In this document: positions 2,364-56,879 of the stretch, piece by piece
How the letters are laid out: each line of letters opens with the position of its first letter
Position numbering within the stretch: position 1 is the stretch's first letter
DNA from: a virus
Reading direction: 5' to 3' (one strand)
Virus record (IMG/VR): IMGVR_UViG_3300032287_003869
Location: 1 to 64,000 of that record
DNA length: 64,000 nt
Program-made: the position numbers and the translations under genes
The notes under the pieces: model-generated
The model's input: the letters and a program-made list of their open reading frames with translations, nothing else
What the model was told of the DNA's origin: nothing
The model's database searches: none

Positions 2364-2391
2364 ATTATAGCACATGAAGACTAAAGATCAA
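2364..2391 (-). promoter_or_regulatory. sigma70-type promoter with extended -10
   Basis: TTGATC-16nt-(TGC)TATAAT. Confidence 0.65.
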
Positions 2392-2907
2392 GTTTTATTA
2401 GAAGAAGCTTATCAAGTTGTGGTATCTAAAAAAATACCACAACTTGTAATAGATAGTATGATGGAAGGTAAGCCTGAAAATAAGTCAGAAGAAGAGTTTC
2501 TTAAAATTACCTCAGAGAGATTAAAAGGTATTGTTTGGTCTGACCGTCCCTTAACATTTCAGCTTGCATTTAACCAATTAGCTGTCCTTCATCCAATATA
2601 CCATCCTTGGTTTGATACGACCCAAGAGATACAAGGGTTTGTAAAAGAATATAAAAAAGCGGTTTTAAATAAAACAAAACTTCCTCAGGAATATTCTTTT
2701 GTTCAACAAGATATAGATAAAACATATGATGTTGACGTAGATGAAATGATGAGAAGACGACCATTAATACTACTACAAAAAGGAAATCAATATAGCATTA
2801 TAGATGGAAACCATCGTTTTTGGGGCAAGGTAGCTCAAGAATTAAGAAAAGATGGAAATATAGAATATGTCTCTGTAAACGCTCTCATAGGTAAAATGAA
2901 GGGTTAG
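2374..2907 (+). CDS. ParB/Srx-like domain protein with capsid-targeting-like leader
   Basis: C-terminal PLILLQKGNQYSIIDGNHR (ParB-N motif); N-terminus MKTKDQVLLEEAY; TAAATA upstream. Confidence 0.7.
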   Translation: MKTKDQVLLEEAYQVVVSKKIPQLVIDSMMEGKPENKSEEEFLKITSERLKGIVWSDRPLTFQLAFNQLAVLHPIYHPWFDTTQEIQGFVKEYKKAVLNKTKLPQEYSFVQQDIDKTYDVDVDEMMRRRPLILLQKGNQYSIIDGNHRFWGKVAQELRKDGNIEYVSVNALIGKMKG

Positions 2908-2941
2908 GTCTTTTGTAACTTCAAGTGTTTTGTTTCTGCTC

Positions 2942-3343
2942 TCATTTCACCAAATAGTCTATATACTTTTGCATGTTTGTCAAGTCTTCTTCTAAAATTC
3001 CTTCAACTGAAGAAACAGCAACTGCTCCGCTATATCCTTTTCTGTTATGGAGTTCAATATCTTTATAGTATCTCAAATCAAAAGTGAAATAATCCTCAAA
3101 TACTGGCACAACTGCTTCTAAATGCACTCTTCTATTAGTTGACCACTTGCTTCTAAAGCAAAACTGCCAATGACAATAAGCGTCTTGCTCTGGTTCATCC
3201 ATTGATACAGACAAATCCTTCCAGCATCCAGAATACCTTCCATCCGTATACCACATGTATTCAAAATGATGGAAGTTAAATTCTCGGAGTTGCTCTTGAA
3301 TCTTTTCTGCTTTTTTGAAAAATCTTATTGTTTCAGCTTTCAT
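2942..3343 (-). CDS. hypothetical protein
   Basis: 133-aa ORF coupled to the upstream gene. Confidence 0.6.
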   Translation of the reverse strand: MKAETIRFFKKAEKIQEQLREFNFHHFEYMWYTDGRYSGCWKDLSVSMDEPEQDAYCHWQFCFRSKWSTNRRVHLEAVVPVFEDYFTFDLRYYKDIELHNRKGYSGAVAVSSVEGILEEDLTNMQKYIDYLVK

Positions 3344-3534
3344 TATGAGAAGTGCAAATCGTATGAATAAAGTTGTTGGTTTTCGTCAACCAAAACCAAT
3401 TTCCATGATGGAGGGTCTGTTTCTTGCTTTTCTACGTAAACATCAACTATATTAAATTTTGGTACCTCTTCCACAATAGGTTTTAATGCAATTGGCTTTG
3501 CGGCTTTAACTTGAATCGGTTGCATGTTATTCAT
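3343..3534 (-). CDS. hypothetical protein
   Basis: Short ORF tiling the array. Confidence 0.5.
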   Translation of the reverse strand: MNNMQPIQVKAAKPIALKPIVEEVPKFNIVDVYVEKQETDPPSWKLVLVDENQQLYSYDLHFS

Positions 3535-3537
3535 AGA

Positions 3538-4098
3538 TTATTCTGTTGGTTGCATTCTATCTGGAACAAATATCCCATCCTCTAAAGAACAATTCTTCCA
3601 TTTGGAAACATAAGTCTTAATGTCCTTTCCTAGAATTTCAGAAGCAAATCCTAGAATACGAATGTTAGGCCAAGCTATGTTTCTAACTTTCAATATCTCT
3701 TTTAAAGCCTCTTCCACTGTTCTCCCAGACATTACTAAAGCTATAATTCCAACAGCAGTAGACCTAGAAATTCCAGCAAAGCAATTTACTCCAAGATTGT
3801 GTGGCTTATCGTCTTCTGCAAAGGGTTTTAAAAAAGTAATGATGTTCTGTATGTGTTGTTTTTTAGGAGCTTCTTCTTCTAAGTGTGTCCATTGAAGCCC
3901 GTCTTCATCCGACCAATCAGCAAAGAACTGATGAAAAAACTTTACATTCTTTTCAACAAAATTCTTACGCATTCTATTAATTTGTTTCCTGTCTTCTTGA
4001 CCTACAACAGAAATCCAAACATCATATTCTGTATTGTTTTTGTTAAAACTATAACTCTCTGCTTCTGCAAGATTTGTTATTTTAATTTTATTGATCAT
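3538..4098 (-). CDS. protein tyrosine/dual-specificity phosphatase-like protein
   Basis: Cx5R P-loop VNCFAGISRST, upstream FxD acid loop and PNxR motif; start set at 4098 (ATGA overlap). Confidence 0.8.
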   Translation of the reverse strand: MINKIKITNLAEAESYSFNKNNTEYDVWISVVGQEDRKQINRMRKNFVEKNVKFFHQFFADWSDEDGLQWTHLEEEAPKKQHIQNIITFLKPFAEDDKPHNLGVNCFAGISRSTAVGIIALVMSGRTVEEALKEILKVRNIAWPNIRILGFASEILGKDIKTYVSKWKNCSLEDGIFVPDRMQPTE

Positions 4099-4361
4099 AT
4101 ATTCCAAGTTGTAGTTGATACGCTATCTCCACATTGATCGCAAATATGTGGATCGTGTTCATAATCATCATATTGAAAAAGATGAATAACGTTTTCTAAA
4201 AGAATCGTCTGTTCTGAAATCCCCTCCTTAATCTTTTCAAAAAGATAATTCAACATCTCATTGTATTCTTGTTCAGATAGTTCAGAAAAAGACCTATCAT
4301 TGACAGTAAAATCAAATGCAGTACATCCAGTTGTTTCTATAAATTTGTATTTTGTTTTCAC
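4095..4361 (-). CDS. hypothetical protein
   Basis: ORF with C-terminal CDQCGD. Confidence 0.6.
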   Translation of the reverse strand: MKTKYKFIETTGCTAFDFTVNDRSFSELSEQEYNEMLNYLFEKIKEGISEQTILLENVIHLFQYDDYEHDPHICDQCGDSVSTTTWNI

Positions 4362-4678
4362 TTTAAATGTTTTTCGTATTCTTTAATTGCATAACCAGCC
4401 TCATGAAATAATTTCGGACCTATTACTGTTACTGGATTTTGTTTTGATATTTCGTACATGTGCAATACGACACCGTATAGATTTTTAGCAATATCTTTCA
4501 ATTTTTCGTTTTCCTCAAAACATTTAGAATGTTCGGATTGTTGCTTTAAAAGACATTTCCCGTATTTTTCAATTGCTTCTTTAGTGTAGGTATCTAATTT
4601 CTCTAAACATCCATGAGCGGACAAACCGCTTTCGTAAAAAGCGAACTCTTCCCATTGTTGAATCATGGAATCTTTCAT
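4358..4678 (-). CDS. hypothetical protein
   Basis: ORF coupled by 4-nt overlaps. Confidence 0.6.
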   Translation of the reverse strand: MKDSMIQQWEEFAFYESGLSAHGCLEKLDTYTKEAIEKYGKCLLKQQSEHSKCFEENEKLKDIAKNLYGVVLHMYEISKQNPVTVIGPKLFHEAGYAIKEYEKHLK

Positions 4679-5028: not shown

Positions 5029-5031
5029 ATC

Positions 5032-5415: not shown

Positions 5416-5425
5416 AAGACACTAT

Positions 5426-5905: not shown

Positions 5906-5915
5906 AATTTTTTCA

Positions 5916-5943
5916 ATTTTAACTTAATTCTAAAAAATGTCAA
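5916..5943 (-). promoter_or_regulatory. sigma70-type promoter
   Basis: TTGACA-16nt-TAAAAT. Confidence 0.65.
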
Positions 5944-17060: not shown

Positions 17061-17066
17061 TAAATA
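17061..17066 (+). promoter_or_regulatory. T4-type late promoter core
   Basis: TAAATA 5 nt before the portal ATG. Confidence 0.7.
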
Positions 17067-17071
17067 ATACT

Positions 17072-18877
17072 ATGCCAGAAAACGCATCTTCAGGAAGAGA
17101 ATCCACATTCGGTAGGGGATTGATGAATTATGTCAACTCCTATCTTCCATATCAGTCTTATACTGTTATAGATACAATATCAAAATTAAATCCAAAATTC
17201 AAGACATTCCAAGACACTGGTTCAAAAAGAACAGAAGCACTTTCCAGACAAAGTATCAGTTCTTCTTCTGATTATAATGATATTTCTCCTTCCGCATTCT
17301 TTAACATTGATTCGAATTTTTCGCAATACATGTATGCGAATGTTCAGGCTGATAAAATTTCTAGAATCAGAGACTATCGTGTTATGGCAGCATTTTCTGA
17401 AGTTGCGGATGCCTTGGATGAAATATGTGACGAGGGTATAAACAAAGACGATAATGGTGATATTGTAAAGTTGGAATTTCCCACAGAAAAACTTAAAACT
17501 GAAGTCAAAGGAGATATTAATGAGGAGTTTGAAAAGATAGTCAATTATTTCGAATTCGAAAAAAGAGGTTGGGAATATTTTAGAAACGTTCTGGTTGACG
17601 GTGAAGTTTATTGGGAAAATATCATCCACAAGGAAAGAGAAGAAGAGGGGGTTCTAGGTATTGTAAGTGTTCCGACAGAGCTTATTGATCCTATTTTTGG
17701 AAATGTTCAAAACATGCTAGTCAAGGGCTTTTTGCTTAGAAAGCCTGTTTTTGACAAAACAAATCCATCTAAAATTGTAGATTATGTTATGATTCCTTTG
17801 GATAAAAACCAAGTAACATATGTTAACTCTGGTGTTTGGAACGAAAATAAAACAATAAGAATTCCTTTCATTGAAAATGCAAGAAGAGCATATAGACAGC
17901 TTTCTCTCATTGAAGATAGCGTTGTCATTCATAGACTTGCACGTGCTCCATCAAGACTTGTTTTCAACGTTGATGTTGGTACAATGCCAGCACCAAAGGC
18001 TGAATCCTATCTCCGAAAGATGATTCAAGACTATTGGTCGAAAAGAACCTTTGACGTAGATCAAAATGGACAAGTCAATAAGTTCAATCCTCAAAGTTAT
18101 TTAGATAATTATTGGTTTGCCAAGAGACAGGGTTCTGAGGGGACTACTGTAACGGATGTTCAAGGAAGTGCTCAACTCAATAGTCTTCCAGACTTGGACT
18201 ACTTTGTAATGAAACTTTACAAAGCATTAAAGGTTCCTGTAAACAGAATTTCAGCGGAATCCGGTTATAATGATGGAATGCAGATGTTAAGAGAGGAGCT
18301 TAAATTTGCTAAATTCATAATGAGAATGCAAATGCATTTCGCGGAATCATTGAAAAATACATTCATTGTTCACTTGAGATTAAAAGGTCTTTGGGACAAA
18401 TATGATTTAAAAGAAACCGATTTTGAAATCAAATTCACTCCTCCTACTAATTTCTTTGAAATGAGAGAGGCTCAAAAAGCTCAAATAAAATACACAACAT
18501 TTAACGACATGGTTCAAAACGAATCCATATCCAAGACCTATGCTCAAAAGAAATATTTGAGATGGAACGATCAAGAAATACTCGCAAATAGAGCATTCCT
18601 CAAGAAAGACAAGGAGCTAGAGTTTGAACTTGCTCAGATTCAAGCCAATGGACCTATGTGGAAGACTGGAGGAGAGTCCGTTGAGGGTCAATCATTGGCG
18701 GCTGGAGGTGGTGGAGGTGCGCTTCCAACCGGAGAAGGCGCTCCAATAACAAACGCTCCTCCTGCTGGTGAGGGTGAAGCCCCTCCAGCTTTTGGACCTG
18801 CTCCAGCGGCGGGTGGTGGAGGTGGTGAAGCTCCTGCTCCTGCTCCTGCTCCTGCAACTCCTCCAGCTGGTGAATAA
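17072..18877 (+). CDS. gp20: portal protein, T4 gp20-like
   Basis: YRVMA..SEV.DA.DEI, QL.LIEDS.VIHRLARAP.R.VF.VDVG.MP..KAE.YL, KLYKALKVP..R and REELKF.KFI motifs. Confidence 0.95.
   Translation: MPENASSGRESTFGRGLMNYVNSYLPYQSYTVIDTISKLNPKFKTFQDTGSKRTEALSRQSISSSSDYNDISPSAFFNIDSNFSQYMYANVQADKISRIRDYRVMAAFSEVADALDEICDEGINKDDNGDIVKLEFPTEKLKTEVKGDINEEFEKIVNYFEFEKRGWEYFRNVLVDGEVYWENIIHKEREEEGVLGIVSVPTELIDPIFGNVQNMLVKGFLLRKPVFDKTNPSKIVDYVMIPLDKNQVTYVNSGVWNENKTIRIPFIENARRAYRQLSLIEDSVVIHRLARAPSRLVFNVDVGTMPAPKAESYLRKMIQDYWSKRTFDVDQNGQVNKFNPQSYLDNYWFAKRQGSEGTTVTDVQGSAQLNSLPDLDYFVMKLYKALKVPVNRISAESGYNDGMQMLREELKFAKFIMRMQMHFAESLKNTFIVHLRLKGLWDKYDLKETDFEIKFTPPTNFFEMREAQKAQIKYTTFNDMVQNESISKTYAQKKYLRWNDQEILANRAFLKKDKELEFELAQIQANGPMWKTGGESVEGQSLAAGGGGGALPTGEGAPITNAPPAGEGEAPPAFGPAPAAGGGGGEAPAPAPAPATPPAGE
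18690..18874 (+). repeat. low-complexity Gly/Ala/Pro/Glu tail of the portal
   Basis: GGT/GGA runs and tandem GCTCCT encoding GGGGG and APAPAPAP. Confidence 0.7.
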
Positions 18878-18894
18878 TTTCACTAAATAGTTCC

Positions 18895-19272
18895 ATGGGA
18901 CTATTTGAAAAAACGTTCTCTATTTTATTAGAACAGACTTGGAACGCTGGATATATGAACATGTTCATGCCTATGCAAAAGAAAAAGAAAGGCATGAGGC
19001 ACATGAGACCTATAATTTTAGATCCTTTTAAGAGAAAACATGCTCAAACTGTTCCAGACATGCACAGACCTGATATGACTCTGATTCAACAAGTGGAAAG
19101 GCTTAAAAACAACCCAACCGTAAATGTTCCTCTTAATATCGTGCAACTTAGAAAAATTTGTAAGAAATACGGAATAAGTAGTGTGTCCAAAATGGAACCA
19201 AAAAAATTGGGAAATACCGGAATAATGATTGTTTGGAATGAACCCACAAAAACCTTCATATTGAAAAAATGA
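18895..19272 (+). CDS. late protein with capsid-targeting-like leader
   Basis: MGLFEKTFSILLEQ; TAAATA at 18884-18889. Confidence 0.65.
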   Translation: MGLFEKTFSILLEQTWNAGYMNMFMPMQKKKKGMRHMRPIILDPFKRKHAQTVPDMHRPDMTLIQQVERLKNNPTVNVPLNIVQLRKICKKYGISSVSKMEPKKLGNTGIMIVWNEPTKTFILKK

Positions 19273-20021
19273 TCACTTTTGACAAATATAATGGTGTAAA
19301 TTGCATCAGAACATATCCAGATAATTACAATGAATATGTTCAATCTACCGTGAGGTTCACGGATAAAGAGAAAAATATCGCAGAAAGATCCTTATATAGT
19401 AATTATTGGAGAGAACAAATAGATCTTTACGGTCAGAAAATATTATATTACAGAAACTTGTATAATGTTCAAGATGGCGATAACACTTATGGTGAAATGC
19501 CTTTGAGCCAATTTGAAGCTCCAAGAGAAATGATAATGTTGTTCACTTTGACTGAAAATGCATTGGTTCTTTCAAAGTTCGGATATCGTTCAGACGATCA
19601 AGTAACGGCTTACTTGCATATTAGTTCGTTTTATGTGCATTACCCCCCAAATATCGAACCAAAATCGGGAGACTTGTTCAAGTTGGTTGAATATGGCTCC
19701 GATAGACCCGGTGAGCGTGATGGTAAGATGTACGAAATCACAGAACGTTGTGATGAGGATAATTCAGCCATCAATCCCTTGGCGGGTCATTACGTTTGGC
19801 TTTTGAAGGCCAAACGCTTTGAGAACTCGTTTGAAAATGCTCCACAAGAAAGAGGAAACATGCAAGTACATGATGATACCTTTTATGGTGATCTTAGCGG
19901 ATCTCTAACAGTTCCTCCAGAAAGAGACCCATCTTATCCTCAAGATTCAGATACCGAATCCAAAGAAAAAGTATTTGATATGTCTATCAATGATACTCTG
20001 GAGTATGGTGGATACTATTAG
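19269..20021 (+). CDS. gp14: neck/head-closure protein, T4 gp14-like
   Basis: REQIDLYGQKILY, YGE...SQF, LSKFG.RSDD, EPKSGDL and YEIT motifs. Confidence 0.8.
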   Translation: MITFDKYNGVNCIRTYPDNYNEYVQSTVRFTDKEKNIAERSLYSNYWREQIDLYGQKILYYRNLYNVQDGDNTYGEMPLSQFEAPREMIMLFTLTENALVLSKFGYRSDDQVTAYLHISSFYVHYPPNIEPKSGDLFKLVEYGSDRPGERDGKMYEITERCDEDNSAINPLAGHYVWLLKAKRFENSFENAPQERGNMQVHDDTFYGDLSGSLTVPPERDPSYPQDSDTESKEKVFDMSINDTLEYGGYY

Positions 20022-21142: not shown

Positions 21143-21541
21143 TTATAACTTATCATCATCTTCTGGATTTTCAACAATTTTGTTCATCTCTACTGTGCAT
21201 GAGAATAATATTTTTTGAATCTTATCCATTTTATCGTTAAAAACATTTACAGCATCAACTCTATGTTTATGTTGAAATACTACAGGATTTCTTTCTGCAC
21301 TTTTCAATGTTGCTCTAACCTGAGATGTTTTTGAGAAAATATCACCTATTTGTTGTAAAAGACTTTCCATTCCGAAGGGAAGTTGTTTTATTGCCTCATG
21401 AGTGTTTGTATTTCTAAATTGATTTACAACGTCATCTACGGTAATAACGTGGGAGGGCGCATCTTGTTTTGCGATACCCTTTACCCATTTATTATATATT
21501 TTTTGATCGTCTTCCAAAAGAATGTTAAAAGTTTCTCTCAT
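21143..21541 (-). CDS. late protein with capsid-targeting-like leader
   Basis: MRETFNILLED; TAAATA on the minus strand at 21551-21556. Confidence 0.65.
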   Translation of the reverse strand: MRETFNILLEDDQKIYNKWVKGIAKQDAPSHVITVDDVVNQFRNTNTHEAIKQLPFGMESLLQQIGDIFSKTSQVRATLKSAERNPVVFQHKHRVDAVNVFNDKMDKIQKILFSCTVEMNKIVENPEDDDKL

Positions 21542-21550: not shown

Positions 21551-21572
21551 TATTTAGACTAAAACATAAATA
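21551..21572. promoter_or_regulatory. back-to-back late promoters
   Basis: TATTTA 21551-21556 (minus) and TAAATA 21567-21572 (plus) in a 36-nt divergent gap. Confidence 0.65.
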
Positions 21573-21577
21573 ATCTT

Positions 21578-21994
21578 ATGGGAATCTACCAGAAATATTT
21601 TAACACTCTTTTAGAGCAAGACGAAATCGAAGCGGCTCCAGTTGCTGTAACCCCAGACGATGAGGCTGGTGCAATGACCGCTGAATTGGATTCGGGTACT
21701 CCTCCGGACGCATTTGATAGTGATGCTGGGACCGTAGAAGTTATTAGAAAAGAATCTCTTGCAAAGCAAAAAAAGATTCTATCCCAATGGGTTAGCGAAA
21801 TTGAACGTTTCGTTGAATATGTCAACGGTGTGAATACTACTTCAGTTCAAGCACAACTTCACAATGCTGGGTGTGATACCTTGTTTGAAAAGATCGCTTC
21901 TTCTGAACATCGTAGAATCTCCCGTATTGCTGTAGAACTTAGCGGTCTTGCAGAAGCTCTCAAGGGATACTTGATTGCTGGAGAGCAAGATTAA
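21578..21994 (+). CDS. acidic late protein with capsid-targeting-like leader (possible prohead core/internal protein)
   Basis: MGIYQKYFNTLLEQ; TAAATA 5 nt upstream. Confidence 0.65.
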   Translation: MGIYQKYFNTLLEQDEIEAAPVAVTPDDEAGAMTAELDSGTPPDAFDSDAGTVEVIRKESLAKQKKILSQWVSEIERFVEYVNGVNTTSVQAQLHNAGCDTLFEKIASSEHRRISRIAVELSGLAEALKGYLIAGEQD

Positions 21995-30158: not shown

Positions 30159-30830
30159 ATGAAAGATAAAGATCAAGTAGCTATATTCGAATCCTATAGA
30201 GAAGACATCCTCAACAAGTTTAAAAAGAGCTTGGAAGGAAACAACGAGCCAGAAATGGAACAAGAACCAATTGAAAACGATCCTTCGGACGAGGTTCCTG
30301 ATTCGGTATCAGATGAAGATTCCGACATGGATGATATTGGTGAAATCGAACTTCCTAAAAAGAAAAACGTAATTGTTCGTTCACAAGAAATTGGAATTCA
30401 AATGCATCCTCAGCTTAGAGAAATTTTAAGACATCTTCCGGATACTATTGAAGACGTTGATGTTCTTTCATCTATTAAAGATGCTATCAAGGAAGTGAAT
30501 GCTGACTTGGCAGATGAAGACCATATAAAAGATTCCCCTCTTTCAATTTATGATGATTTAATTAATTCTGGAATTTATTCCGAAGAAGAAGTTGATTCAG
30601 ATGATTTGGAAGACAAAGAAATTGACGTTCTTCAAAGCATGGAAGACGATGACTACTCAGACGATTCCGATATTGAGAACGAATTCGATCTTAGTAAGAA
30701 AACTCGTAGGGAAAGAGAAGATTTTCGTTCTGGAATGAGGGGCGATGTTGAGAGATCAAAGGCTGAGGATTACCTTCGCCAAATGGGTGTCGATTGGGAG
30801 GATCGTGGTCTTCCTGAAAACGATTACTAA
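30159..30830 (+). CDS. highly acidic late protein with capsid-targeting-like leader
   Basis: MKDKDQVAIFESY; D/E-rich; TAAATA upstream. Confidence 0.7.
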   Translation: MKDKDQVAIFESYREDILNKFKKSLEGNNEPEMEQEPIENDPSDEVPDSVSDEDSDMDDIGEIELPKKKNVIVRSQEIGIQMHPQLREILRHLPDTIEDVDVLSSIKDAIKEVNADLADEDHIKDSPLSIYDDLINSGIYSEEEVDSDDLEDKEIDVLQSMEDDDYSDDSDIENEFDLSKKTRREREDFRSGMRGDVERSKAEDYLRQMGVDWEDRGLPENDY

Positions 30831-35708: not shown

Positions 35709-35715
35709 ATATTCA

Positions 35716-35723
35716 TATTTATA
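35716..35723 (-). promoter_or_regulatory. T4 late promoter
   Basis: Perfect TATAAATA, 7 nt before the endonuclease ATG. Confidence 0.75.
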
Positions 35724-35740
35724 TCTTTTGCTCTAATTTT

Positions 35741-46595: not shown

Positions 46596-46832
46596 ATGAA
46601 TTTCGATAAATTAGTAAAATGTATTTTAGAGGACAATGCCGCTGGTGATGGAGGCTCATTTGGGTCTGGTGAATCATTCGGACATGGTGGTGCTGTCGGT
46701 AATTCTGACTTTTGGAATACCGGAAGTGCAATTATCCCCTATGTAATGGGGACATTTAGAAGATCGGGGAAAGTAAAAGGGAAAAGAAAAAGAAAAAATG
46801 CAAAAAGAAGAAAGAAAAATAGATCTAAGTGA
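46596..46832 (+). CDS. small late protein with capsid-targeting-like leader, Gly-rich with basic tail
   Basis: MNFDKLVKCILED; C-terminal KGKRKRKNAKRRKK. Confidence 0.65.
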   Translation: MNFDKLVKCILEDNAAGDGGSFGSGESFGHGGAVGNSDFWNTGSAIIPYVMGTFRRSGKVKGKRKRKNAKRRKKNRSK

Positions 46833-47470: not shown

Positions 47471-47941
47471 ATGCTCTACGAATTGATTAATTATAACACT
47501 TTATACAAGAATATCAAACTAGATATAGAAGAATTCTGTAAGAAATATGAAATTTCATTTGAAAATTCCAAAGTAAAAACAAAAAGAGAACTTTTAATTT
47601 ATTTTTCTCTTATTGAGATTTTAAAAAAATTGGAAAAAAGAAAATTAGAAAAACCAATTGTAATCTTCGATTCAAACTTCAATAATACTTTGTTTCAATT
47701 CTGTTTTAAACAAATATCAAAAATTCTAGTTATTCCTGTATTTTTTGTTGAAAATGAAATTTCAAATGGAACAAAGAAAGAATTGATATTAAAAGCTGAT
47801 TCTTTTTATGATTTAAATATTTTTACAATTAAAAAACTAAAAAAACAATTATGTTTTAAAAAACATAGTTCTCTTGTTTCAAATATTTGTAATTTTAAAT
47901 CTTTGGGATGCTCTCAAATGATGGAGCATAGCGTTGAATGA
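47471..47941 (+). CDS. hypothetical protein
   Basis: 156-aa, very AT-rich ORF. Confidence 0.55.
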   Translation: MLYELINYNTLYKNIKLDIEEFCKKYEISFENSKVKTKRELLIYFSLIEILKKLEKRKLEKPIVIFDSNFNNTLFQFCFKQISKILVIPVFFVENEISNGTKKELILKADSFYDLNIFTIKKLKKQLCFKKHSSLVSNICNFKSLGCSQMMEHSVE

Positions 47942-48260
47942 TTGGGAGAAATTGTCTTAATGCCTCTTTTGCATTGTTTTCATTGATATCTCCGAATTCA
48001 ACAATTTTATTCTCTTCATCAGCATCTAGTCTTTCGATCATAAGAGCCTTTGCAATCATTCTTACAAGAAGAACCATTCCTTCAGGGGAAAGTGCTTCGG
48101 TATTAGAAGGTTGTTCCGGAATTTCAGGAACTGGTGTTGGTGCTGCCTGATCTGGTGCAGCCTGTGCAGGAGCTTCTGGTGTTGGAGGAACAGGGGGTTG
48201 ATCTTGTTCAGTAATAAGTTCCTTGTATCCTTTGTTGAGTATTTTGTGAAATCTGCTCAT
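47895..48260 (-). CDS. late protein with capsid-targeting-like leader and Pro-rich linker
   Basis: MSRFHKILNKGYKELITEQ; 1 nt downstream of the late gene 48262-48912. Confidence 0.65.
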   Translation of the reverse strand: MSRFHKILNKGYKELITEQDQPPVPPTPEAPAQAAPDQAAPTPVPEIPEQPSNTEALSPEGMVLLVRMIAKALMIERLDADEENKIVEFGDINENNAKEALRQFLPIIQRYAPSFESIPKI

Positions 48261-48261: not shown

Positions 48262-48912
48262 TTATTTGCTTTCCTTTAAAATTTCCAAATTGAAAATAAT
48301 TCTCTTCAATACTTCTTCATTTACTTCTTTTCCTTCACCATTCAACATGCTTGTAATTTTGGAAATCAAAACCATATCATTTGAGAAGTCATCCATTGGC
48401 TTTGATACATTTTTTTCATAGGATTCAAACTCTATGACATTCTTAACAGCACAAAGATAATCAGCTGCTTTCACAATCTTGGAAAGCATCCATGCTTCGA
48501 TTTTATTTCCACATCCAACAAGAGACATGAGAGCATCTGCATATTTTTTGATTTTGAATACTTCAGATTTTGCCATATCAAGATTTCCAGAATCATGCAC
48601 ATCGTAATCGCATTCCTCACACCCCTCTTCTTCCTCTTGAGAATGTTGACCACACTCTCCACTTTCGCATTCTGGGCAACTCTGTCTATTCATGTCAATA
48701 GTATTGGCCGTTTGTTCCATTTCCTCTGGACTCCTTCTGAATGTTTCAATTTCTTCTGGTTTTGTTGCAATAAATTCTATTTCATTTTGGTCGGGATTTG
48801 TTGCATTTTTAATCAATACGTTTTGGGGCATTTGTTCGCCTCCAACATTCATTTCTTCCAAAACTTGTTCATATGCTTTGGAAAGTTCTAAAAGACTGGA
48901 TTTTCTTGTCAT
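48262..48912 (-). CDS. late protein with capsid-targeting-like leader (possible prohead core-like)
   Basis: MTRKSSLLELSKAYEQVLEE; MAKSE...IEAWM.SKI.KAADYL pattern; TAAATA 5 nt upstream. Confidence 0.7.
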   Translation of the reverse strand: MTRKSSLLELSKAYEQVLEEMNVGGEQMPQNVLIKNATNPDQNEIEFIATKPEEIETFRRSPEEMEQTANTIDMNRQSCPECESGECGQHSQEEEEGCEECDYDVHDSGNLDMAKSEVFKIKKYADALMSLVGCGNKIEAWMLSKIVKAADYLCAVKNVIEFESYEKNVSKPMDDFSNDMVLISKITSMLNGEGKEVNEEVLKRIIFNLEILKESK

Positions 48913-48949: not shown

Positions 48950-49228
48950 ATGAGTAATTTTGATCAACTTGTTAATGTCATTTTGGAAGCTGCTAGATGC
49001 ACAGGTCCAACAAAGAAGGCATCTTCAACAGCTAAAGGTAAAAAATGGATGCAATGTGTAAAAAATCCAAAAGGAAAAGGTTACAAAAGAGTTCATTTTG
49101 GACAAAAGGGTGTGAAAGTTACAGGAAAATCAGGCAACACTAAGAGAAAAAAAAGCTTCCGCGCACGGCATGGATGCTCCAAAGCAAAACCAGGAACCGC
49201 AAAATTTCTAAGTTGTAAGAATTGGTAA
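48950..49228 (+). CDS. small basic protein with capsid-targeting-like leader (DUF5754/DUF6321-like)
   Basis: Start reset to ATG 48950: MSNFDQLVNVILEA; VHFGQKG...RKKSFRARHGC...SCKNW. Confidence 0.7.
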   Translation: MSNFDQLVNVILEAARCTGPTKKASSTAKGKKWMQCVKNPKGKGYKRVHFGQKGVKVTGKSGNTKRKKSFRARHGCSKAKPGTAKFLSCKNW

Positions 49229-49255: not shown

Positions 49256-49666
49256 ATGAAATTCAACGACCTCTACAACTATCTATTGGAAACAGCACTT
49301 GGTCTTGTTGAAGACATCACAATAGAGGGAATTGGAACTCTAAAGGCAAAAACAGACACAGGAAATTCAGCACACAATGTTCTCCATGGTTTGATCAAAG
49401 GAAAACAAGAAGGAAGCGTTACATTTGAAACAATAGATGGTAAAGTTGTAACATTCCCATACAATGAAGAAATAAAAATTCACATTGGTTCAGGTAACAA
49501 AGAAGACAGACCAGTTGTTAATTTCAATGTGGAAATTAATGGAGAAAGATATGAGAATGTCCCATTCTCAATAGCAGATAGAAGCGAGAACGAATACAAG
49601 GCACTTCTTGGGGAAGAATTCATAAAAGCCAATGGTGGAATTGTTGATGCAACAAAAGAGGATTAA
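49256..49666 (+). CDS. retropepsin-like aspartic protease (RimK-associated type) with capsid-targeting-like leader
   Basis: AKTDTGN catalytic motif, EDRPVV and FSIADRS...LLG; MKFNDLYNYLLET. Confidence 0.75.
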   Translation: MKFNDLYNYLLETALGLVEDITIEGIGTLKAKTDTGNSAHNVLHGLIKGKQEGSVTFETIDGKVVTFPYNEEIKIHIGSGNKEDRPVVNFNVEINGERYENVPFSIADRSENEYKALLGEEFIKANGGIVDATKED

Positions 49667-49674
49667 ATATTTTA

Positions 49675-50442
49675 ATGCGTGACAATGATAGTTTGATTTT
49701 GGAAAAATTATATTCTACTATTTTGGAAAATAGTGGTTTAGATGCAAAATATGCCGAATTGGAACAAAGATCAAAAGATGGAGATGAAGAAGCTGAAGCG
49801 GAAGCGCAGAAAATGGTGGATGAGGCTGCGAAAAAATCTGAATATAATATTGCTGATGTTTTCCACGGAAGTCCGACTCACGGGTTTACTGTGTTTACTC
49901 CACAAACAGACATAACGGGTTCTATTAGAAATCAAGGGGTGCATGTGTTTTCAAAAGGAACCAAAATACCTCGTAGATATTCGGGCAGCAAAGGAGAAAT
50001 TCGCAAGTTTTTTTTGAATGTTAATAATCCTTTTGATCATAGGAATCACGATCAAGTTAGGTATGTTTTGCGTCACATTTTTTTTAATCGCAACAATTAT
50101 CTTGATATGGAAACTCCAAATGGAGTGGTTCCAGACCTTTATAAACTTTTGGAAGATAAATCTAAAGACTACGAAACAGTAAACAAAAATGACACATCGG
50201 CTGAAAAACTTTTTAAGCTTGCATCAGCACCAGATTATGAGTTCGTAGAAACATCTGGAGTTCCACAAGTTCTTAAAGAATTGGGATATGATGGTTATAT
50301 AACAATGGAGGGTGGGGAATTGGTTTATGGGGTTTTTGATTCTTTTCAAATCAAATCCGCCACCCCCTTCACCTATGATAATGGAGAATTGATTCCCCTT
50401 TCCCAAAGATTCGATTCTTCAAACAATGATATAAGATATTGA
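49675..50442 (+). CDS. ADP-ribosyltransferase-like (ART-PolyVal type) protein with capsid-targeting-like leader
   Basis: FHGS...F.VF, G.HVFS, FLN..NP, LKELGYDG, VFDS.QIKSA and F...NDIRY; leader MRDNDSLILEKLYSTILE; TAAATA 5 nt upstream. Confidence 0.7.
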   Translation: MRDNDSLILEKLYSTILENSGLDAKYAELEQRSKDGDEEAEAEAQKMVDEAAKKSEYNIADVFHGSPTHGFTVFTPQTDITGSIRNQGVHVFSKGTKIPRRYSGSKGEIRKFFLNVNNPFDHRNHDQVRYVLRHIFFNRNNYLDMETPNGVVPDLYKLLEDKSKDYETVNKNDTSAEKLFKLASAPDYEFVETSGVPQVLKELGYDGYITMEGGELVYGVFDSFQIKSATPFTYDNGELIPLSQRFDSSNNDIRY

Positions 50443-50474: not shown

Positions 50475-50948
50475 GTGAAATTTCTAAACCTATTGGAAAA
50501 TGCAGTCAAATCCATAAAACTTCAAAAGGTCCGCATCAAGGTTGATCCTATGTGGAGTGAGAAGCTGGGTATTATTAATTCACCATATTATGAAGGATAC
50601 ATACTACAGGAGTGTCCGGGCAGCAAAATGGACTTCAAAGTTTTCATTGTCAACACTCCATCAGGAATTAACCCTATACAAACTGTGCATAAAGCTCATT
50701 TGGAGCCTGTTGAGGTCGAGACTCCACAAGAAACTGAAAAAGTTTCAAAATTCAATGGCTCAAGACTATCGGTCTTTAAGAAACACCTTGTTGAGAAACT
50801 CAAGGAATTAGGTAAAGAATTAGAATCTCCAGAAGTTTCCCAAGTTATTGCATCCACAGATATCGGTTTTATTGAAACCTATTTGAAACAAATGGGACTA
50901 AATGAAGAAGATCTTTTAAATTTGTATAGAAAATGCTTACAAAAATAA
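50475..50948 (+). CDS. late protein with capsid-targeting-like leader
   Basis: MKFLNLLEN; TAAATA 5 nt before the GTG. Confidence 0.65.
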   Translation: MKFLNLLENAVKSIKLQKVRIKVDPMWSEKLGIINSPYYEGYILQECPGSKMDFKVFIVNTPSGINPIQTVHKAHLEPVEVETPQETEKVSKFNGSRLSVFKKHLVEKLKELGKELESPEVSQVIASTDIGFIETYLKQMGLNEEDLLNLYRKCLQK

Positions 50949-51544: not shown

Positions 51545-51820
51545 ATGCCAGTAAAAAAGGATTTTAGAAAAGAATTAGAAAAACTCATATCCAAATACGA
51601 TGATTCCGTATTGGCTAAACATATTGATCATTGCTTGAAAGAATACGATCATACTGAATATATGAAGGGCGCAGAGAATCCATTTGGGGTAGATTTAAAC
51701 AAGGTTCCTGAAGTTAAACCAAACACACCTCAACCGCCTCAAGCCATTCCAGCGAATATTGGAAATATCACAACGCAAGGTTGGTCTAATCCGTTTGCAG
51801 GAACAAGCTGGGGAGTTTAA
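51545..51820 (+). CDS. hypothetical protein
   Basis: 91-aa ORF with its own promoter. Confidence 0.6.
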   Translation: MPVKKDFRKELEKLISKYDDSVLAKHIDHCLKEYDHTEYMKGAENPFGVDLNKVPEVKPNTPQPPQAIPANIGNITTQGWSNPFAGTSWGV

Positions 51821-52506
51821 CCTTCCCCTCTAGCTCCCCTAGCGAATCCTCTCTCCCATTCGGATACATTATGCGCCCAATTGGGATCTTTTGTTCTGTT
51901 GGAGTCACTTTTTCCAGAGCTAGAAACTCTACTCTTATCACCGCTGAAGAAACCTGCAATTTTATTTGGTATAGTTTCAGTTGCTGGTTTTTGAGCAGTA
52001 ACGTCTTTACGATATATTGATGGGTCTCTTGGACGTGGAGCAGATACCGGAGCTTGTACTGGCTTTTCAAATTTCATCGGACCCAATTTATTAAAGTCCA
52101 ATGGACCACTATCTCCGAAAAAATCCGCCTCAGATGACGGTTGCTCCTCATCTTCAGGCAATCTTTCGGGGTTTTCTTTTTGTTGCTTCTCCCTCTCTCT
52201 TGCTAGTTCCTTTCCGAACTTAGGATCAGGCTCATTTGCGGTTTCTTGATCATCCTGTGCAGGAGTAGCCTCTGGATAAGAAGCATAACCAGCTGTATCG
52301 GCATCTCCTACTCTGTGTAAAATGTTATATGCCCTCTCAACCATTGGATTTCCAAAAAGTTCTAAAATTTCGGATTTTAATCTTTGATCAAAATTAGCTG
52401 CTCTGACTTTATCGATAAAAGATTGAAAACTTTTAGTTTCAGCTTGCTCCAAAAGGATTGATTTGTATTGATTGAAAATATCGTGGTTGTCTTTTTTACC
52501 TAACAT
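51817..52506 (-). CDS. late, largely disordered protein with capsid-targeting-like leader
   Basis: Start reset to ATG 52506: MLGKKDNHDIFNQYKSILLEQ; TAAATA at 52515-52520 (minus). Confidence 0.7.
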   Translation of the reverse strand: MLGKKDNHDIFNQYKSILLEQAETKSFQSFIDKVRAANFDQRLKSEILELFGNPMVERAYNILHRVGDADTAGYASYPEATPAQDDQETANEPDPKFGKELAREREKQQKENPERLPEDEEQPSSEADFFGDSGPLDFNKLGPMKFEKPVQAPVSAPRPRDPSIYRKDVTAQKPATETIPNKIAGFFSGDKSRVSSSGKSDSNRTKDPNWAHNVSEWERGFARGARGEG

Positions 52507-52514
52507 ATTAATTA

Positions 52515-52540: not shown

Positions 52541-52548
52541 ATCATACA

Positions 52549-53271
52549 ATGACCAGATTTGATAAATTTTGTAATTTAATTCTAGAGGTATATGGTAAAA
52601 GAATAACATCAGCTACAGGAACCGACAACAGTGGAAAAACGGAAGTTACTTATAGCGATGGATCTTCTGCTGTATTGACCGGACCCAGACCAGTGAGAAA
52701 CAACAATCCCGGTAACATTGAGTATGGGCCATTTGCCAAAGCAAATGGAGCAGTAGGAGGTGATGGGAGATATGCGGTTTTTCCAGATGTTGAGACTGGG
52801 ACAAAGGCTCAAATAAATTTATTAAAAACATCCACTTATCAAAATTTAACATTAAAAGATGCAATTACAAGATATGCTCCACCAAATGAAGGCAACAATG
52901 CATCATATCCTAATAAACTCAGCAATATGACTGGAATTTCATTGGACACCAAACTTAGCAATCTATCGCCAAGTCAATTTTCTAACATGGTAGATAAAAT
53001 GCAAGCAATTGAAGGGTTTAAATCGGGAAACGTCGATTCCACCCCATCCCAACAATATGCTGGAACTGGAGCAACACAACAACCACCAGAAGGAGGGGAA
53101 AAGGACAAAGAGCAATCACCATATGCCGCAATGTTTGCTCAATATTTGCCTTCCGTAGCAGGAGGATTTACTAAAGAAAAGGGAGCAGAATCCCTTAAAG
53201 GAATAATGAACACAGCAGTCGGAGCAATAGAGGGAATGACAGGGAAAAAACTACCAATACCAAAGGTTTAA
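52549..53271 (+). CDS. virion lysozyme-fold (RNNNPGNI-type) muralytic protein with capsid-targeting-like leader
   Basis: RNNNPGNI...GRYAVF.....G...I.RYAPP.E.N...Y; leader MTRFDKFCNLILEV. Confidence 0.7.
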   Translation: MTRFDKFCNLILEVYGKRITSATGTDNSGKTEVTYSDGSSAVLTGPRPVRNNNPGNIEYGPFAKANGAVGGDGRYAVFPDVETGTKAQINLLKTSTYQNLTLKDAITRYAPPNEGNNASYPNKLSNMTGISLDTKLSNLSPSQFSNMVDKMQAIEGFKSGNVDSTPSQQYAGTGATQQPPEGGEKDKEQSPYAAMFAQYLPSVAGGFTKEKGAESLKGIMNTAVGAIEGMTGKKLPIPKV

Positions 53272-53273
53272 TT

Positions 53274-54032
53274 ATGAACGAAGACGTAAATGCTATTTTT
53301 GAAAAATATGTTCTTGTGTTGGAACAAGAACAACAATCACAGGCTCAAAGTGAAGGCAAGCCATTAGGTCAATTAGTAGGAGCTAAAGGTGGAGGAGAAG
53401 GAGGAGATTGGGGAGGATCTATGCCAAAACTCATATCTCTTTTGCCTTTTGGCGTTTGGAAACCATCATCATTAAAAAGGGCAAGACTAAGCACAAGGTC
53501 CGGTAACATGTCTGATCACTATGAGGGAAATAGTATAGCATATGCTGCGGACTTTGGACTGAATACCACATTCGGAACAAGAGTCGAAGATGCTACAAGA
53601 TTTGCAATCGCCGTTGCTAGAAATGCAGGAGCAAATGTTTCTTCTTGGGAACCATTTAAGGGAAATTATTTTAATCACGAAACCCCAGATGGATATAGAG
53701 TTCAAATTATTTGGCTATCAAATGTGGGGGGAAACCATTATGATCACGTCCACGTTGGAGTTAAAAAAGGAAGAAGCTCGGCTAAATTTAAAGGATCGGC
53801 GGCTCCTGTCTTAAATGCAAAGACAAAGACAGACGCAGAAACCAACCAACAAACAGATCAACAATTTTTTACAAAAGACCCCGAAGGTAAAGAACCATCT
53901 CCTTATTTAAATCAATTAAATCAAATGCTTCAAGGGGGCTTCACAAAAGAAAAAGGAATAGAAGCACTTCAAGGAATAGTTGGAAATGCAATATCCGATA
54001 TAGGAAAGGCTGTTGGAAAAAAACTTTTCTAA
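53274..54032 (+). CDS. LAS/M15-like zinc peptidase with capsid-targeting-like leader
   Basis: SDH...YAADF...HYDHVHV zinc-ligand pattern; leader MNEDVNAIFEKYVLVLEQ. Confidence 0.7.
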   Translation: MNEDVNAIFEKYVLVLEQEQQSQAQSEGKPLGQLVGAKGGGEGGDWGGSMPKLISLLPFGVWKPSSLKRARLSTRSGNMSDHYEGNSIAYAADFGLNTTFGTRVEDATRFAIAVARNAGANVSSWEPFKGNYFNHETPDGYRVQIIWLSNVGGNHYDHVHVGVKKGRSSAKFKGSAAPVLNAKTKTDAETNQQTDQQFFTKDPEGKEPSPYLNQLNQMLQGGFTKEKGIEALQGIVGNAISDIGKAVGKKLF

Positions 54033-54048
54033 AACAATAAATAATACC

Positions 54049-54918
54049 ATGAGAGATAAAGATGCACAGTTGATTTTCGAAAGTTATTTAAATTCCAAAA
54101 ATAACATAATTTTAGAAGACGATGGTAAAAAATGGGAGGATGAAAGCTCTGTATGGTTTTGGTTGAAAACATTTGATCCAACGGGATTTAGTTCTTGGCC
54201 TGATGTTAGGGAGGCTTACTATGGAGTTAGAGAAAATCCAGCAGACGTTGGCCCTTGGGCATTTTTTATATTGCAGATGTTTTTAGCTTTACCTAATTTT
54301 GGATTATTGGCAGCAGGAATTGGGGGAATAGGATGGGCTGGATTGAGGACTGTGGCCAAAGCTGCGATTAAAGCTGGTCCATCTAGTCCAGCGGTTTATA
54401 AAATTGCTGAAACAATATTAAAATATGCTACTGAGACTAAATGGTTTCAGGCAATATTGGTTAAATTTGGAAAAATTCTTAAAGAAAAAGGAGTCATGAA
54501 TCAAAATATGCTCGATATTTACGAAAATATGATTACGTCTGGAAATTTTGCTAAATTAGGTTCAAAAGGAGGAGCTTTGGCTATAGCTGCAAAAGAAACA
54601 ATTGGTGACGGGATTAGGTATGTTCCAAAAATACCATTGGTAGGAATTCCAATATTTGGAAAAGGCGGTCAAATTGCTCAATATGGTGGAAGGGCGGGAA
54701 TGTCCCAAGCGGATGAGGTTAAAGCTGAATTTGAAAAATTTAAACAAAATATAAATAAAGGTTCTAATAAAGGACAAGGACCAACTAAAGAAGCCGCCAA
54801 AGAAGGAAAATATCCAGTTGGAAAAAGAGTTAAACCTGATCAACAGACTCCTGATAAAAAAACAGAACCTGCTCCAGCTAAAAGCAAATCTAAATATGCA
54901 CTTGAAAACTTAGACTAA
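54049..54918 (+). CDS. membrane-inserting protein with capsid-targeting-like leader
   Basis: Start reset to ATG 54049: MRDKDAQLIFESY...IILED; DPTG motif and hydrophobic Gly-zipper helices (LLAAGIGGIGWAG); TAAATA 5 nt upstream. Confidence 0.65.
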   Translation: MRDKDAQLIFESYLNSKNNIILEDDGKKWEDESSVWFWLKTFDPTGFSSWPDVREAYYGVRENPADVGPWAFFILQMFLALPNFGLLAAGIGGIGWAGLRTVAKAAIKAGPSSPAVYKIAETILKYATETKWFQAILVKFGKILKEKGVMNQNMLDIYENMITSGNFAKLGSKGGALAIAAKETIGDGIRYVPKIPLVGIPIFGKGGQIAQYGGRAGMSQADEVKAEFEKFKQNINKGSNKGQGPTKEAAKEGKYPVGKRVKPDQQTPDKKTEPAPAKSKSKYALENLD

Positions 54919-54921
54919 TAT

Positions 54922-55917
54922 ATGAACAAATATAATACCTTGAAATATATCATGGAGCAAACGTCTTCCGATTTAGAAAAAAATGTTAATAGATTAAAAA
55001 AATTAATAGCTATTTACAATTCAGATTCTGAAGAAAACAAGGATTTGTTGTCAACGGATCCTAATTCTGAAGATAGTTTGAAATTTTGGAATTCGGTAGA
55101 AACGCTTTTAAAAAATATTGAAAATGCTGATGCATATTCTCCCGAATCTTCAAAATATTTACAAGAACAGGGAGAAGATGTGGCAAAAGCAATGTCTGAT
55201 ATAAAAGAAATCGTTAAACAACATCCTGAAATATATAATGCCAATTTTAAAGAAATATTAGACCCAATATCAAGCGAGCCTTTATCGACAAAACCAACAG
55301 AGCAACAAACCGCGCCTTCAAATGCTCCATCTAGTGAACAAAAACCAGAATCCACCGCAACCGGAACTTCTGAAAAGAAACCGGAAGATACATACACTAA
55401 AGATTACACAGGAGTATCTATTGTGGATTTCTTAGATCAAAGTGGAAAACCAAGTGATTTTGAATCGCGTAAAAAATTAGCTCAAAGTCTTGGAATTCAA
55501 AATTACACAGGAACCGCATCTCAAAATACTCAAATGCTCAATACATTAAGAGGCGGTAAACAATATTCCGATGGAGTTGAAGTTCAAAAAGCAGAACTCG
55601 CCAAACCATATACTACACCCAAAGATGGAAAAGGTCCAACAATTAGATATGGTCAAATGGAATATCCCGCATATATTGACATGGGTGGAGGAAAATATCG
55701 CCTTGCAAAACAAGAAGAATTGGATAACCCGAATATGCAACTTTATATTCCAAATCCCAAAAAGGGACAACAGGAATATGGAAAGCCAAATTTTGTTAAA
55801 GTTAGAAGAGAAGGTAGCGATATTAGACGCCAATCTCAATTCGGTGGAGCAATTGGATCTGCTTCCAATTTATTCGGAGACATTGGAAACACTCTTGCAA
55901 AACCATTCAGAAAATAA
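54922..55917 (+). CDS. protein with DUF3597-like (putative cell-wall-binding) domain and capsid-targeting-like leader
   Basis: SIVDFL...SDFESRKKLA..LGI.NYTGTASQN..ML; leader MNKYNTLKYIMEQ. Confidence 0.65.
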   Translation: MNKYNTLKYIMEQTSSDLEKNVNRLKKLIAIYNSDSEENKDLLSTDPNSEDSLKFWNSVETLLKNIENADAYSPESSKYLQEQGEDVAKAMSDIKEIVKQHPEIYNANFKEILDPISSEPLSTKPTEQQTAPSNAPSSEQKPESTATGTSEKKPEDTYTKDYTGVSIVDFLDQSGKPSDFESRKKLAQSLGIQNYTGTASQNTQMLNTLRGGKQYSDGVEVQKAELAKPYTTPKDGKGPTIRYGQMEYPAYIDMGGGKYRLAKQEELDNPNMQLYIPNPKKGQQEYGKPNFVKVRREGSDIRRQSQFGGAIGSASNLFGDIGNTLAKPFRK

Positions 55918-55945
55918 TTGATTTTTTGGAAAATTGAAGTAAGAT
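55918..55945 (+). promoter_or_regulatory. sigma70-type promoter (leaderless)
   Basis: TTGATT-16nt-TAAGAT, 6 nt before ATG 55952. Confidence 0.55.
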
Positions 55946-55951
55946 AATTGC

Positions 55952-56662
55952 ATGAGAATAGCAATTTCTGGATGTGCCGCTTCTGGTAAAACCACAACAA
56001 TTCAACATTTTCTTCAAAAATGGCCAAGTTATTCATTGATCAATAGTGAATATAGAAAGTTAATTAAAGATAATAACCACTCCAAAAACACTACTTCAAA
56101 GCTCCAAGGTGAAATATTAGATATACTAGTCAAAGAGTGTGAACCATATACTCTCCACCAGAATGTGATATTTGATAGATGTCCAATAGATAACCTCGTT
56201 TATAGTATGTGGTGCTATGGAAATAACGTGGAAGGATTCACTGACAAATTTATAGAGCAATCAATTTTAAAAGTCAGAAAAGCAATGCAATATTTTGATG
56301 TTATCTTTGTTTGCACTAGAGATTTAATGCCTCCAATTGAAGATAACGGAGTTAGGGAAATTGATCCTAAGTATGTGGAAGAGACTGATAATCTTTTTAA
56401 AGCCATCATTAACAAATATAAAAAAGGAGCAGAAGAATTGCCATTTTTTGAAAAAAATAATGCACCAGCCATTATCGACATATATGGTCAACCACATGAG
56501 AGGCTTGCACAGATTGCAATGTATGTCACCGAGGATGGTAATATGTATGGTGAAGATCAATCACTTATAAACTTGGATGAATTAGGAGAAATGAACAAAC
56601 TCGTTAGAGAACAACAAGACGCATTAAAAAATGAAAAAACTCCAATCTTTGGCATTAAATAA
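55952..56662 (+). CDS. P-loop nucleotide kinase-like protein (AAA_28/dNMP kinase-like)
   Basis: ISGCAASGKTT, FDRCPIDNLVY and DNGVR. Confidence 0.75.
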   Translation: MRIAISGCAASGKTTTIQHFLQKWPSYSLINSEYRKLIKDNNHSKNTTSKLQGEILDILVKECEPYTLHQNVIFDRCPIDNLVYSMWCYGNNVEGFTDKFIEQSILKVRKAMQYFDVIFVCTRDLMPPIEDNGVREIDPKYVEETDNLFKAIINKYKKGAEELPFFEKNNAPAIIDIYGQPHERLAQIAMYVTEDGNMYGEDQSLINLDELGEMNKLVREQQDALKNEKTPIFGIK

Positions 56663-56666
56663 TTGA

Positions 56667-56879
56667 GTGAAGTTTCATAAACAGGCTAACGCTCTCTTAG
56701 AGGGATATAACTCTATTTTAACTAAATCTAGGATGTTTTATCCTAGAAATTTCAATCTTTCCAAAGAATTTCTTAATTCATTCAAGAAAGAGGTTGCTAG
56801 GTTGAAAGCCGAGAATGTTGGAGAAAAAGACATTGTGAGAAAAATCACAAAAGCACTTCATTTCCACGTTAAAGATTAA
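56667..56879 (+). CDS. small late protein with capsid-targeting-like leader
   Basis: MKFHKQANALLEG; TAAATA 5 nt before the GTG. Confidence 0.6.
   Translation: MKFHKQANALLEGYNSILTKSRMFYPRNFNLSKEFLNSFKKEVARLKAENVGEKDIVRKITKALHFHVKD

Follow-up and report, generated by a model that had tools for sequence, protein, structure and literature searches.

The 64,000-nucleotide window analyzed here is the first 64 kb of IMG/VR virus record IMGVR_UViG_3300032287_003869, a 91.8-kb viral contig estimated to be 44% complete, and it contains 18 genes whose otherwise unrelated products begin with one of two short peptides, called here the type A and type B leaders (Table 1). The G+C content of the window is 30 to 37%. 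Judging from the match of its portal protein to Portal_T4, the phage is T4-like, at some distance from cultured phages: the best cultured-phage portal match reaches about 31% identity at the protein level, and a DNA-level search of a cultured-phage collection with the portal region and the 46.5- to 57-kb locus gave no match. Many related contigs are found in IMG/VR, and we compared two of these relatives in full: G003 (116 kb, 55% complete), the closest long relative, with a portal 81% identical to that of the contig, and G001 (230 kb, complete), with a portal 61% identical. The relatives have a major head protein of the T4 type, and the portal in the window, together with gp22 and gp23 in G003, places the head among those of T4-type phages.

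Table 1. Leader genes of the window and the portal gene. In the text, a gene is cited by one of its end coordinates.
Coordinates	Strand	Length (amino acids)	Leader	Product and remarks
2374..2907	+	177	type A	cargo with DGNHR (ParB/Srx-like) motif
17072..18877	+		no leader motif	T4-type portal protein (gp20); Pfam Portal_T4, E 1.8e-94; TAAATA 5 nt 5' of ATG
18895..19272	+	125	type B	basic (+15); directly after portal gene; same leader type in G001 ortholog
21143..21541	-	132	type B	G003 and G001 orthologs keep hydrophobic-x-Glu in place
21578..21994	+	138	type B	acidic (-12); conserved in all three genomes
30159..30830	+	223	type A	net charge -43; G003 ortholog with same leader
46596..46832	+	78	type B	basic (+12); resembles T4 internal protein
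47895..48260	-	121	type B-like, Glu at residue 18
48262..48912	-	216	type A-like, without Asp	acidic (-20)
48950..49228	+	92	type B	net charge +22; DUF5754-like domain; 90% identical to G003 ortholog
49256..49666	+	136	type B	Zn_protease domain (PF05618, residues 16-133)
49675..50442	+	255	type A	ART-PolyVal ADP-ribosyltransferase (PF18760, residues 62-230)
50475..50948	+	157	type B, short (Glu at residue 8)	GTG start
51817..52506	-	229	type A, Asn replaces first Glu; second site Glu at residue 20
52549..53271	+	240	type B	peptidoglycan hydrolase
53274..54032	+	252	type A	C-terminal module in common with 52549
54049..54918	+	289	type A, second site Glu at residue 23	no G003 ortholog
54922..55917	+	331	type B-like	L-Ala-D-Glu-peptidase-like domain (phrog_2307, E 7e-16, residues 160-259)
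56667..56879	+	70	type B	basic (+8); GTG start; leader kept in G003 and G001 orthologs

The 18 N-terminal peptides and their start codons, two of which are GTG (50475 and 56667), are all present where an earlier note on this DNA had placed them. At 52506, 54049, and 48950, the start chosen in that note is an internal ATG of a longer open reading frame (ORF), and these shorter starts are supported because a TAAATA sequence lies 5 to 8 nucleotides (nt) upstream of each. Type B leaders have an aromatic residue at positions 3 to 4, a hydrophobic residue at positions 6 to 8, and a terminal (I/L)-(L/M/T)-Glu with its Glu at residues 8 to 13, whereas type A leaders have Asp at positions 4 to 5 and (I/L)-(F/L)-Glu at positions 8 to 12, followed by x-Tyr. 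Several type A members have a second site at residues 17 to 23. The earlier note had looked to such a downstream [I/L/V]LE for the type A cleavage site, which is not needed, since type A has its own (I/L)-x-Glu near residue 10. Where the first Glu is absent, as in 52506 (Asn) and in the protein P0102 (Asp), a second L-x-Glu is in place downstream.

Could so short a pattern arise by chance? We tested the motif [IL][LIMFT]E, with its Glu at residues 8 to 14, across all 144 ORFs of the 92-kb contig and found it in 21. Shuffling residues 2 to 25 gives 4.0 +/- 1.9 motif ORFs with a maximum of 14, so that 0 of 2,000 shuffles reach the observed count, and the rate in the whole proteome predicts 4.2 (Poisson p = 5e-9). 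An unbiased scan points the same way, in that LLE is the tripeptide most enriched at residues 2 to 22 relative to the rest of the proteome, with ILE, ESY, and AIF within the top twelve. An enrichment among TAAATA genes was also found, as the motif is present in 12 of the 35 ORFs that have this promoter sequence and in 9 of the 109 that do not (odds ratio 5.8, Fisher p = 5e-4); of the nine motif ORFs without a nearby promoter, five lie in late operons and four are early-strand genes (5940, 9088, 19987, and 33926), the number expected by chance. The excess recurs in both relatives (23 motif ORFs versus 6.8 by shuffling in G001, and 14 versus 4.4 in G003), with the same odds ratio between motif and late promoter as in the contig. 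The T4 genome, taken as a control, has no genome-wide excess of either the narrow motif (6 versus 7.5 expected) or [IL]xE (30 versus 23.6), and the signal in the contig is thus much stronger than that of T4. A seven-column matrix trained on the contig recovered in G003 new leader proteins that have no counterpart in the contig. The same matrix found no excess in the more distant G001, because G001 mostly uses type A leaders, and there the position-specific motif succeeded.

The earlier note had further held that these proteins have no other similarity and that the leader is a genome-wide feature. The former claim stands: in an all-against-all BLASTP comparison with 25 residues removed, the sole exception is a C-terminal module common to 52549 and 53274. 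The latter is overstated, as 12 of the 18 leader genes lie in one 10-kb locus (46.6 to 56.9 kb).

Each leader gene does, as had been noted, either have its own TAAATA or directly follow a leader gene that has one. The sequence lies within 18 nt of the start in 13 leader genes and at -31 or -37 in two, and the remaining three (53274, 48260, and 49256), which have none of their own, come directly after a TAAATA-bearing leader gene. Judged by the promoter motif alone, the leader genes are predicted to be expressed late, with head assembly. In 12 cases in the contig and 13 in G003, TAAATA ends exactly 5 nt before the start (e.g., 17061-17074, 18884-18897, 21567-21580, and 49664-49677), and in G001 the spacing is 4 to 6 nt in 63 cases. 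Shine-Dalgarno-like 4-mers precede 15 of the 144 genes of the contig (about 10%) and 6% and 18% of those of G003 and G001, respectively. Based on the 5-nt spacing and the rarity of Shine-Dalgarno sites, we propose that late mRNAs are probably leaderless or nearly so; the pattern also hints at a host that does not use such sites, such as a member of the Bacteroidota.

Is the unit of promoter and leader then a portable cassette, as had been suggested? At the level of whole genes this description is apt, because leader genes are swapped within a syntenic locus, but at the level of DNA it is not. The regions from promoter to leader share just TAAATA and the codons that the peptide forces, and a mobile DNA cassette is accordingly rejected. 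The Leu and Glu codons of the motif vary by gene (TTA, TTG, CTT, or CTA and GAA or GAG), and such synonymous differences argue for selection on the peptide and not for a mobile DNA cassette. A search for DNA-level repeats flanking the leader genes found none.

The proteins behind the leaders are diverse, and the leader is separable from them. All recognized cargo domains begin past it: besides the ART-PolyVal and PF05618 domains (Table 1), these are the DUF5754 domain (residues 26-74), the hydrolase domain of 52549 (33-167), and the peptidase-like domain of 54922. The enzyme-like cargo comprises the ADP-ribosyltransferase, two cell wall hydrolases, the PF05618 retropepsin/Zn-protease-like domain, and a ParB-like domain, although the last assignment, for 2374, is weak, being based on a DGNHR motif and one marginal match. 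Four leader proteins are basic (46596, 48950, 18895, and 56667) and two strongly acidic (30159 and 48262). Searches of Pfam, PHROGs, and NCBIfam gave no match for 12 of the 18 (30159, 48262, 50475, 51817, 53274, 54049, 21143, 21578, 18895, 46596, 47895, and 56667). The AF2 model of 52549 shows the leader (residues 3-15) as a helix of low confidence, apart from a confidently modeled domain (17-160) for which the Enc34 endolysin 7q47 is the top fold match (probability 1.0). A database search for relatives of this protein found that the ten closest carry a leader, in two alternative versions, and that more than 60 distant homologues start at the domain or with signal peptides; this cargo domain does, therefore, occur elsewhere without the leader. 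In the 2374 family, the cargo is nearly invariant past one point, before which the leader is of type A in two members and of type B in five. One family thus carries either class, and the two classes seem equivalent in function. In total, the leader is the sole element that these unrelated proteins share.

The leader is also retained in orthologs that are 40 to 60% identical, while the genes themselves come and go. The window from 46.6 to 56.9 kb is syntenic with 55 to 67 kb of G003, and whole leader genes have been replaced, are missing, or have been added: in G003, an unrelated leader protein stands in place of 52549, the ADP-ribosyltransferase is absent, and there is an extra 537-residue type A protein. 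The ADP-ribosyltransferase family (49675-50442 and P0001-P0018) combines a type A leader with a C-terminal tail, about 30 residues long, that hardly varies, and its middle varies or is replaced (P0004 and P0016). The module common to 52549 and 53274 is 56 residues long and 50% identical (53107-53271 and 53865-54032); it is modeled in 52549 as a long helix (209-231) preceded by a disordered linker.

That phages sort proteins into the head by a targeting peptide is textbook T4 biology, and the likeness of the leaders to the T4 signal is close. The T4 record has IPII and IPIII starting MKTYQEFIAE, then Ala, and IPI starting MKTFKEF, cut later, and the T4 proteins gp21, gp22, gp24, gp67, and gp68 have a short N-terminal stretch ending hydrophobic-x-Glu. 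The first 10 residues of T4 IPIII suffice for packaging; targeting is influenced by residues 4 and 7 of the T4 leader and processing by residues 8 and 10, Asp at position 10 blocks processing but not targeting, and the gp21 N terminus also fits the cleavage logo (PMC9026906). Near-copies of the T4 leader, matching at 6 to 7 of 10 residues, are found in the clade as MRSYKEFFYE (the N terminus of the G001 ortholog of 49256), MKSFKEFILE, and MRTFKQFVLE (the G003 gene sitting in place of 52549). The T4-type layout is seen in type B, with two or three extra residues, and type A fits only its (I/L)-x-Glu part. Across the clade we assembled 196 nonredundant N termini with starts fixed by TAAATA plus 4 to 8 nt, of which 34 have (I/L)-x-Glu, with the position of the Glu peaking at 10, 12, and 13. 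Two residues before the Glu these 34 have Ile (20) or Leu (14) and nothing else, and Tyr is common two residues past it. The leaders are unlike Sec or Tat signal peptides, in which an unbroken hydrophobic core of at least 10 residues follows a basic N terminus; charged and polar residues interrupt the leaders, and a Glu stands at their end.

Do the head proteins of the clade keep the sites at which those of T4 are cut? Clade gp21 has L-[VI]-E at residues 6 to 8, followed by Thr or Ala, in every distinct N terminus listed (T4 has LIE at 7 to 9); clade gp22 has L-S-[ED] at about residue 18; and clade gp23 has, near residue 59, [IV]-x-E and then a small residue, the middle position being variable. 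Hydrophobic-x-Glu sites are thus kept where T4 is cut or its logo is matched, which is the pattern expected if the specificity of the T4 protease is conserved. The protease gp21 (PF03420) is present in two of two complete relatives, at 110 to 121 bits, and in about 100 clade contigs in two collection scans; the order 21-22-23 holds in all those checked, none of which could be tied to the subclade of the contig. The gene belongs to the T4-like core genome (PMC2993671). As a core gene that is present in relatives, gp21 is expected in the unsampled half of this genome.

These observations are consistent with a model in which the leaders are capsid-targeting propeptides of the T4 kind, carried by many unrelated late proteins and cleaved by a gp21-type protease, and we consider this model likely to be correct. 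Under it, a short amphipathic N-terminal helix of 8 to 13 residues (occasionally up to about 22), ending (I/L)-(L/F/M/T)-Glu, would bind the protein to the scaffolding core during prohead assembly. Cleavage after the Glu by a gp21-type prohead protease would follow, the mature protein would stay in the head, and the mature cargo would exit with the DNA at infection. We posit that the protein cargo of the phage is probably of unusual size and variety. The T4-type reading was already that of the earlier note; the T4-like head, the layout of the leader, the conserved sites in head proteins, the modularity, and the T4-like cargo are in keeping with it, but the protease gene it calls for is missing from the contig.

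Several points weigh against this model. Neither gp21 (PF03420, Peptidase_S77) nor an HK97-type protease (Peptidase_S78, PF04586) was found in the contig (44% complete) or in G003 (55% complete), and in G003 the slot upstream of gp22 is filled by leader-bearing proteins, a type A one next to gp22, with no gp21 there. The ORF at 19269-20021 was considered as gp21 and rejected: it resembles gp14 (phrog “head closure Hc2”), and a profile comparison with clade gp21 showed no similarity. The middle residue of the leader site, L/F/M/T, is narrower than that of T4, and the specificity of the protease may differ from that of T4. Four leaders (54922, the weakest, and 56667, 48912, and 48260) have weak leave-one-out matrix scores of 1 to 4. 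Some of the tagged proteins may be parts of the scaffold that are degraded rather than delivered as cargo, and cleavage, packaging, and injection of the leader proteins are inferred from their sequences rather than demonstrated.

Might the leader, then, be a scaffold- or portal-binding helix that is never cleaved, or a mark for the complete degradation of the scaffold, so that most of these proteins go undelivered? Processing and targeting can be separated in T4, as the Asp-10 substitution illustrates (PMC9026906); the contig lacks a protease gene; and 18895, 21143, and 21578 are conserved beside the portal in all relatives, as core components would be. Indeed, these three proteins are more likely prohead-core components than injected cargo, and the 18895 protein is likely a prohead-core or internal protein. 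For the leader proteins as a whole, however, we regard this alternative as unlikely. The terminal Glu is the best-kept position of the leader, and the second L-x-Glu found where the first Glu has been lost suggests that selection favors a cleavable site; the enzyme cargo, moreover, is sensible only if delivered intact.

A second alternative is that the shared N termini are an accident of translating leaderless mRNAs, which would call for AT-rich, unstructured first codons near the promoter. The peak of the spacer at 5 nt, the scarcity of Shine-Dalgarno sites, and the AT-rich genome all suit this idea. However, the same 5-nt spacing goes without a leader in the portal gene and at 59244, both in the window, and at 66225, 67391, and 89826 further along the contig; shuffled N termini give 4 motif ORFs, not 21, such that composition is no explanation; and the leader persists in the diverged orthologs even though its codons differ from gene to gene. 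We therefore consider this explanation very improbable. The odds are poorer still that the leader proteins are fast-diverging paralogs in which the N terminus is the last recognizable part and has no shared sorting role. The clustering of two-thirds of the genes (12 of 18) within 46.6 to 56.9 kb and the module common to 52549 and 53274 would fit such a history, but no common family or fold unites the cargo domains, which include ART-PolyVal, PF05618, DUF5754, an Enc34-type hydrolase, and an M15-like peptidase; the leader is missing from distant homologues of the hydrolase domain, and one cargo family carries either class. That the motif arises by chance, or as an artifact of AT-rich composition and start selection, is almost inconceivable: the loose tripeptide does occur about four times by chance, and four early genes match it, but the shuffled counts fall short, the excess recurs in two other genomes, the promoter-fixed starts agree, and the contig-trained matrix finds new leader proteins in G003.

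How does a set of T4-kind propeptides of this size compare with known systems? The capsid-targeting sequences of T4 IPI, IPII, and IPIII are removed by gp21, according to Mullaney and Black (1996) as cited in PMC9026906 and PMC3012670. The T4 sequence and the leaders are alike in being about 10 residues long, with an aromatic residue at 3 to 4, a hydrophobic one at about 7, and an (I/L)-x-Glu end, in being the only element common to unrelated late proteins, and in that many of the cargoes are small and basic. They differ in that most type B leaders here are 2 to 3 residues longer, the middle residue is restricted to L/F/M/T, the type A class is unknown in T4, and much of the cargo here is enzymatic; moreover, the carriers number at least 18 in 64 kb here, known from sequence alone, versus three internal proteins in T4. 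The cargo nonetheless has T4 precedents in the basic internal proteins and in the ADP-ribosyltransferase Alt (PMC3012670). Alt is packaged in the T4 head and processed by gp21, and it is trimmed at both ends (PMC9026906). The leader protein at 49675-50442 is likewise an ADP-ribosyltransferase, predicted to be late, with an N-terminal leader that looks cleavable and, across its family, a conserved C-terminal tail. The 49675 protein differs in being an ART-PolyVal protein (PF18760) of 255 residues versus 682, with no detectable sequence relation to Alt, and the invariant tail of its family suggests, by analogy with Alt, a second conserved end signal.

The internal-protein loci of T-even phages offer a further parallel, as at least 10 different internal proteins there share only the leader, in the account that PMC12373910 and PMC3012670 give with reference to Repoila et al. 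(1994). As in those loci, whole leader genes are gained, lost, and replaced here within a syntenic locus; the known internal proteins are small antirestriction proteins, whereas the locus here adds enzymes of 130 to 330 residues. The jumbo phages phiKZ, 201phi2-1, and SPN3US resemble this phage in scale, with a dozen or more processed head proteins and ejected enzymes, and in a protease that cuts after Glu. Their sites reportedly have a small residue (S/A/G) two before the Glu, and their propeptides are said to be long and dissimilar; here, that residue is Ile or Leu, and the leaders are short (8 to 13 residues) and stereotyped, and none of the 34 clade leaders fits the phiKZ-type pattern. Polyvalent proteins, which phages and conjugative elements encode and from which the Pfam domain ART-PolyVal derives, may be similar in that the domain is delivered with incoming DNA, but ART-PolyVal here stands alone behind a short leader and not in a giant multidomain protein.

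The leader set is, in our view, a larger, two-class version of the T-even system that involves no new mechanism or principle; the novelty lies in scale and breadth. If the leaders act as they do in T4, the tag long predates the T-even phages and is much more widely distributed than they are, having been kept in a clade whose portal shares only about 30% identity with that of any cultured phage. It would also follow that the injected arsenal of uncultured phages can be read from sequence, yielding candidate antidefense and host-takeover proteins, and that T4-type capsids could be loaded with proteins by means of new tags. That either leader class can stand before one cargo allows one to ask what the targeting signal needs. 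More tentatively, and with a confidence that leans somewhat to the side of doubt, we speculate that in deep-branching uncultured T4-like phages the capsid is a general protein-delivery vehicle at jumbo-phage scale. Two interchangeable tags would load at least 20 coinjected proteins, including wall hydrolases, an ADP-ribosyltransferase, and protease-like and nuclease-like proteins, and because the late mRNAs appear leaderless, promoter, start codon, and tag would together form a module of about 50 bp that makes any acquired gene head cargo.

Some further features of these genomes deserve mention. In most clade contigs, the portal gene is followed by a few small genes and then by the T4-like order gp21-gp22-gp23, whereas in this contig (17072-21994 region) it is followed by a leader protein, the gp14-like gene, and then reverse-strand genes, and in G003, the terminase gene has gp22 and gp23 nearby but not gp21; by gene order, the head module of this subclade is rearranged. 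A RecA/UvsX-like region at 33926-36595 is in pieces around a 366-residue ORF (34608-35708) in the ORF list. The acidic protein encoded at 30159-30830, with a net charge of -43 over 223 residues and kept in G003, could be a candidate DNA-mimic antirestriction protein. Past the window, the same contig has one extra leader protein at 65981-66223 on the minus strand and a probable one at 73025-73699 on the plus strand.

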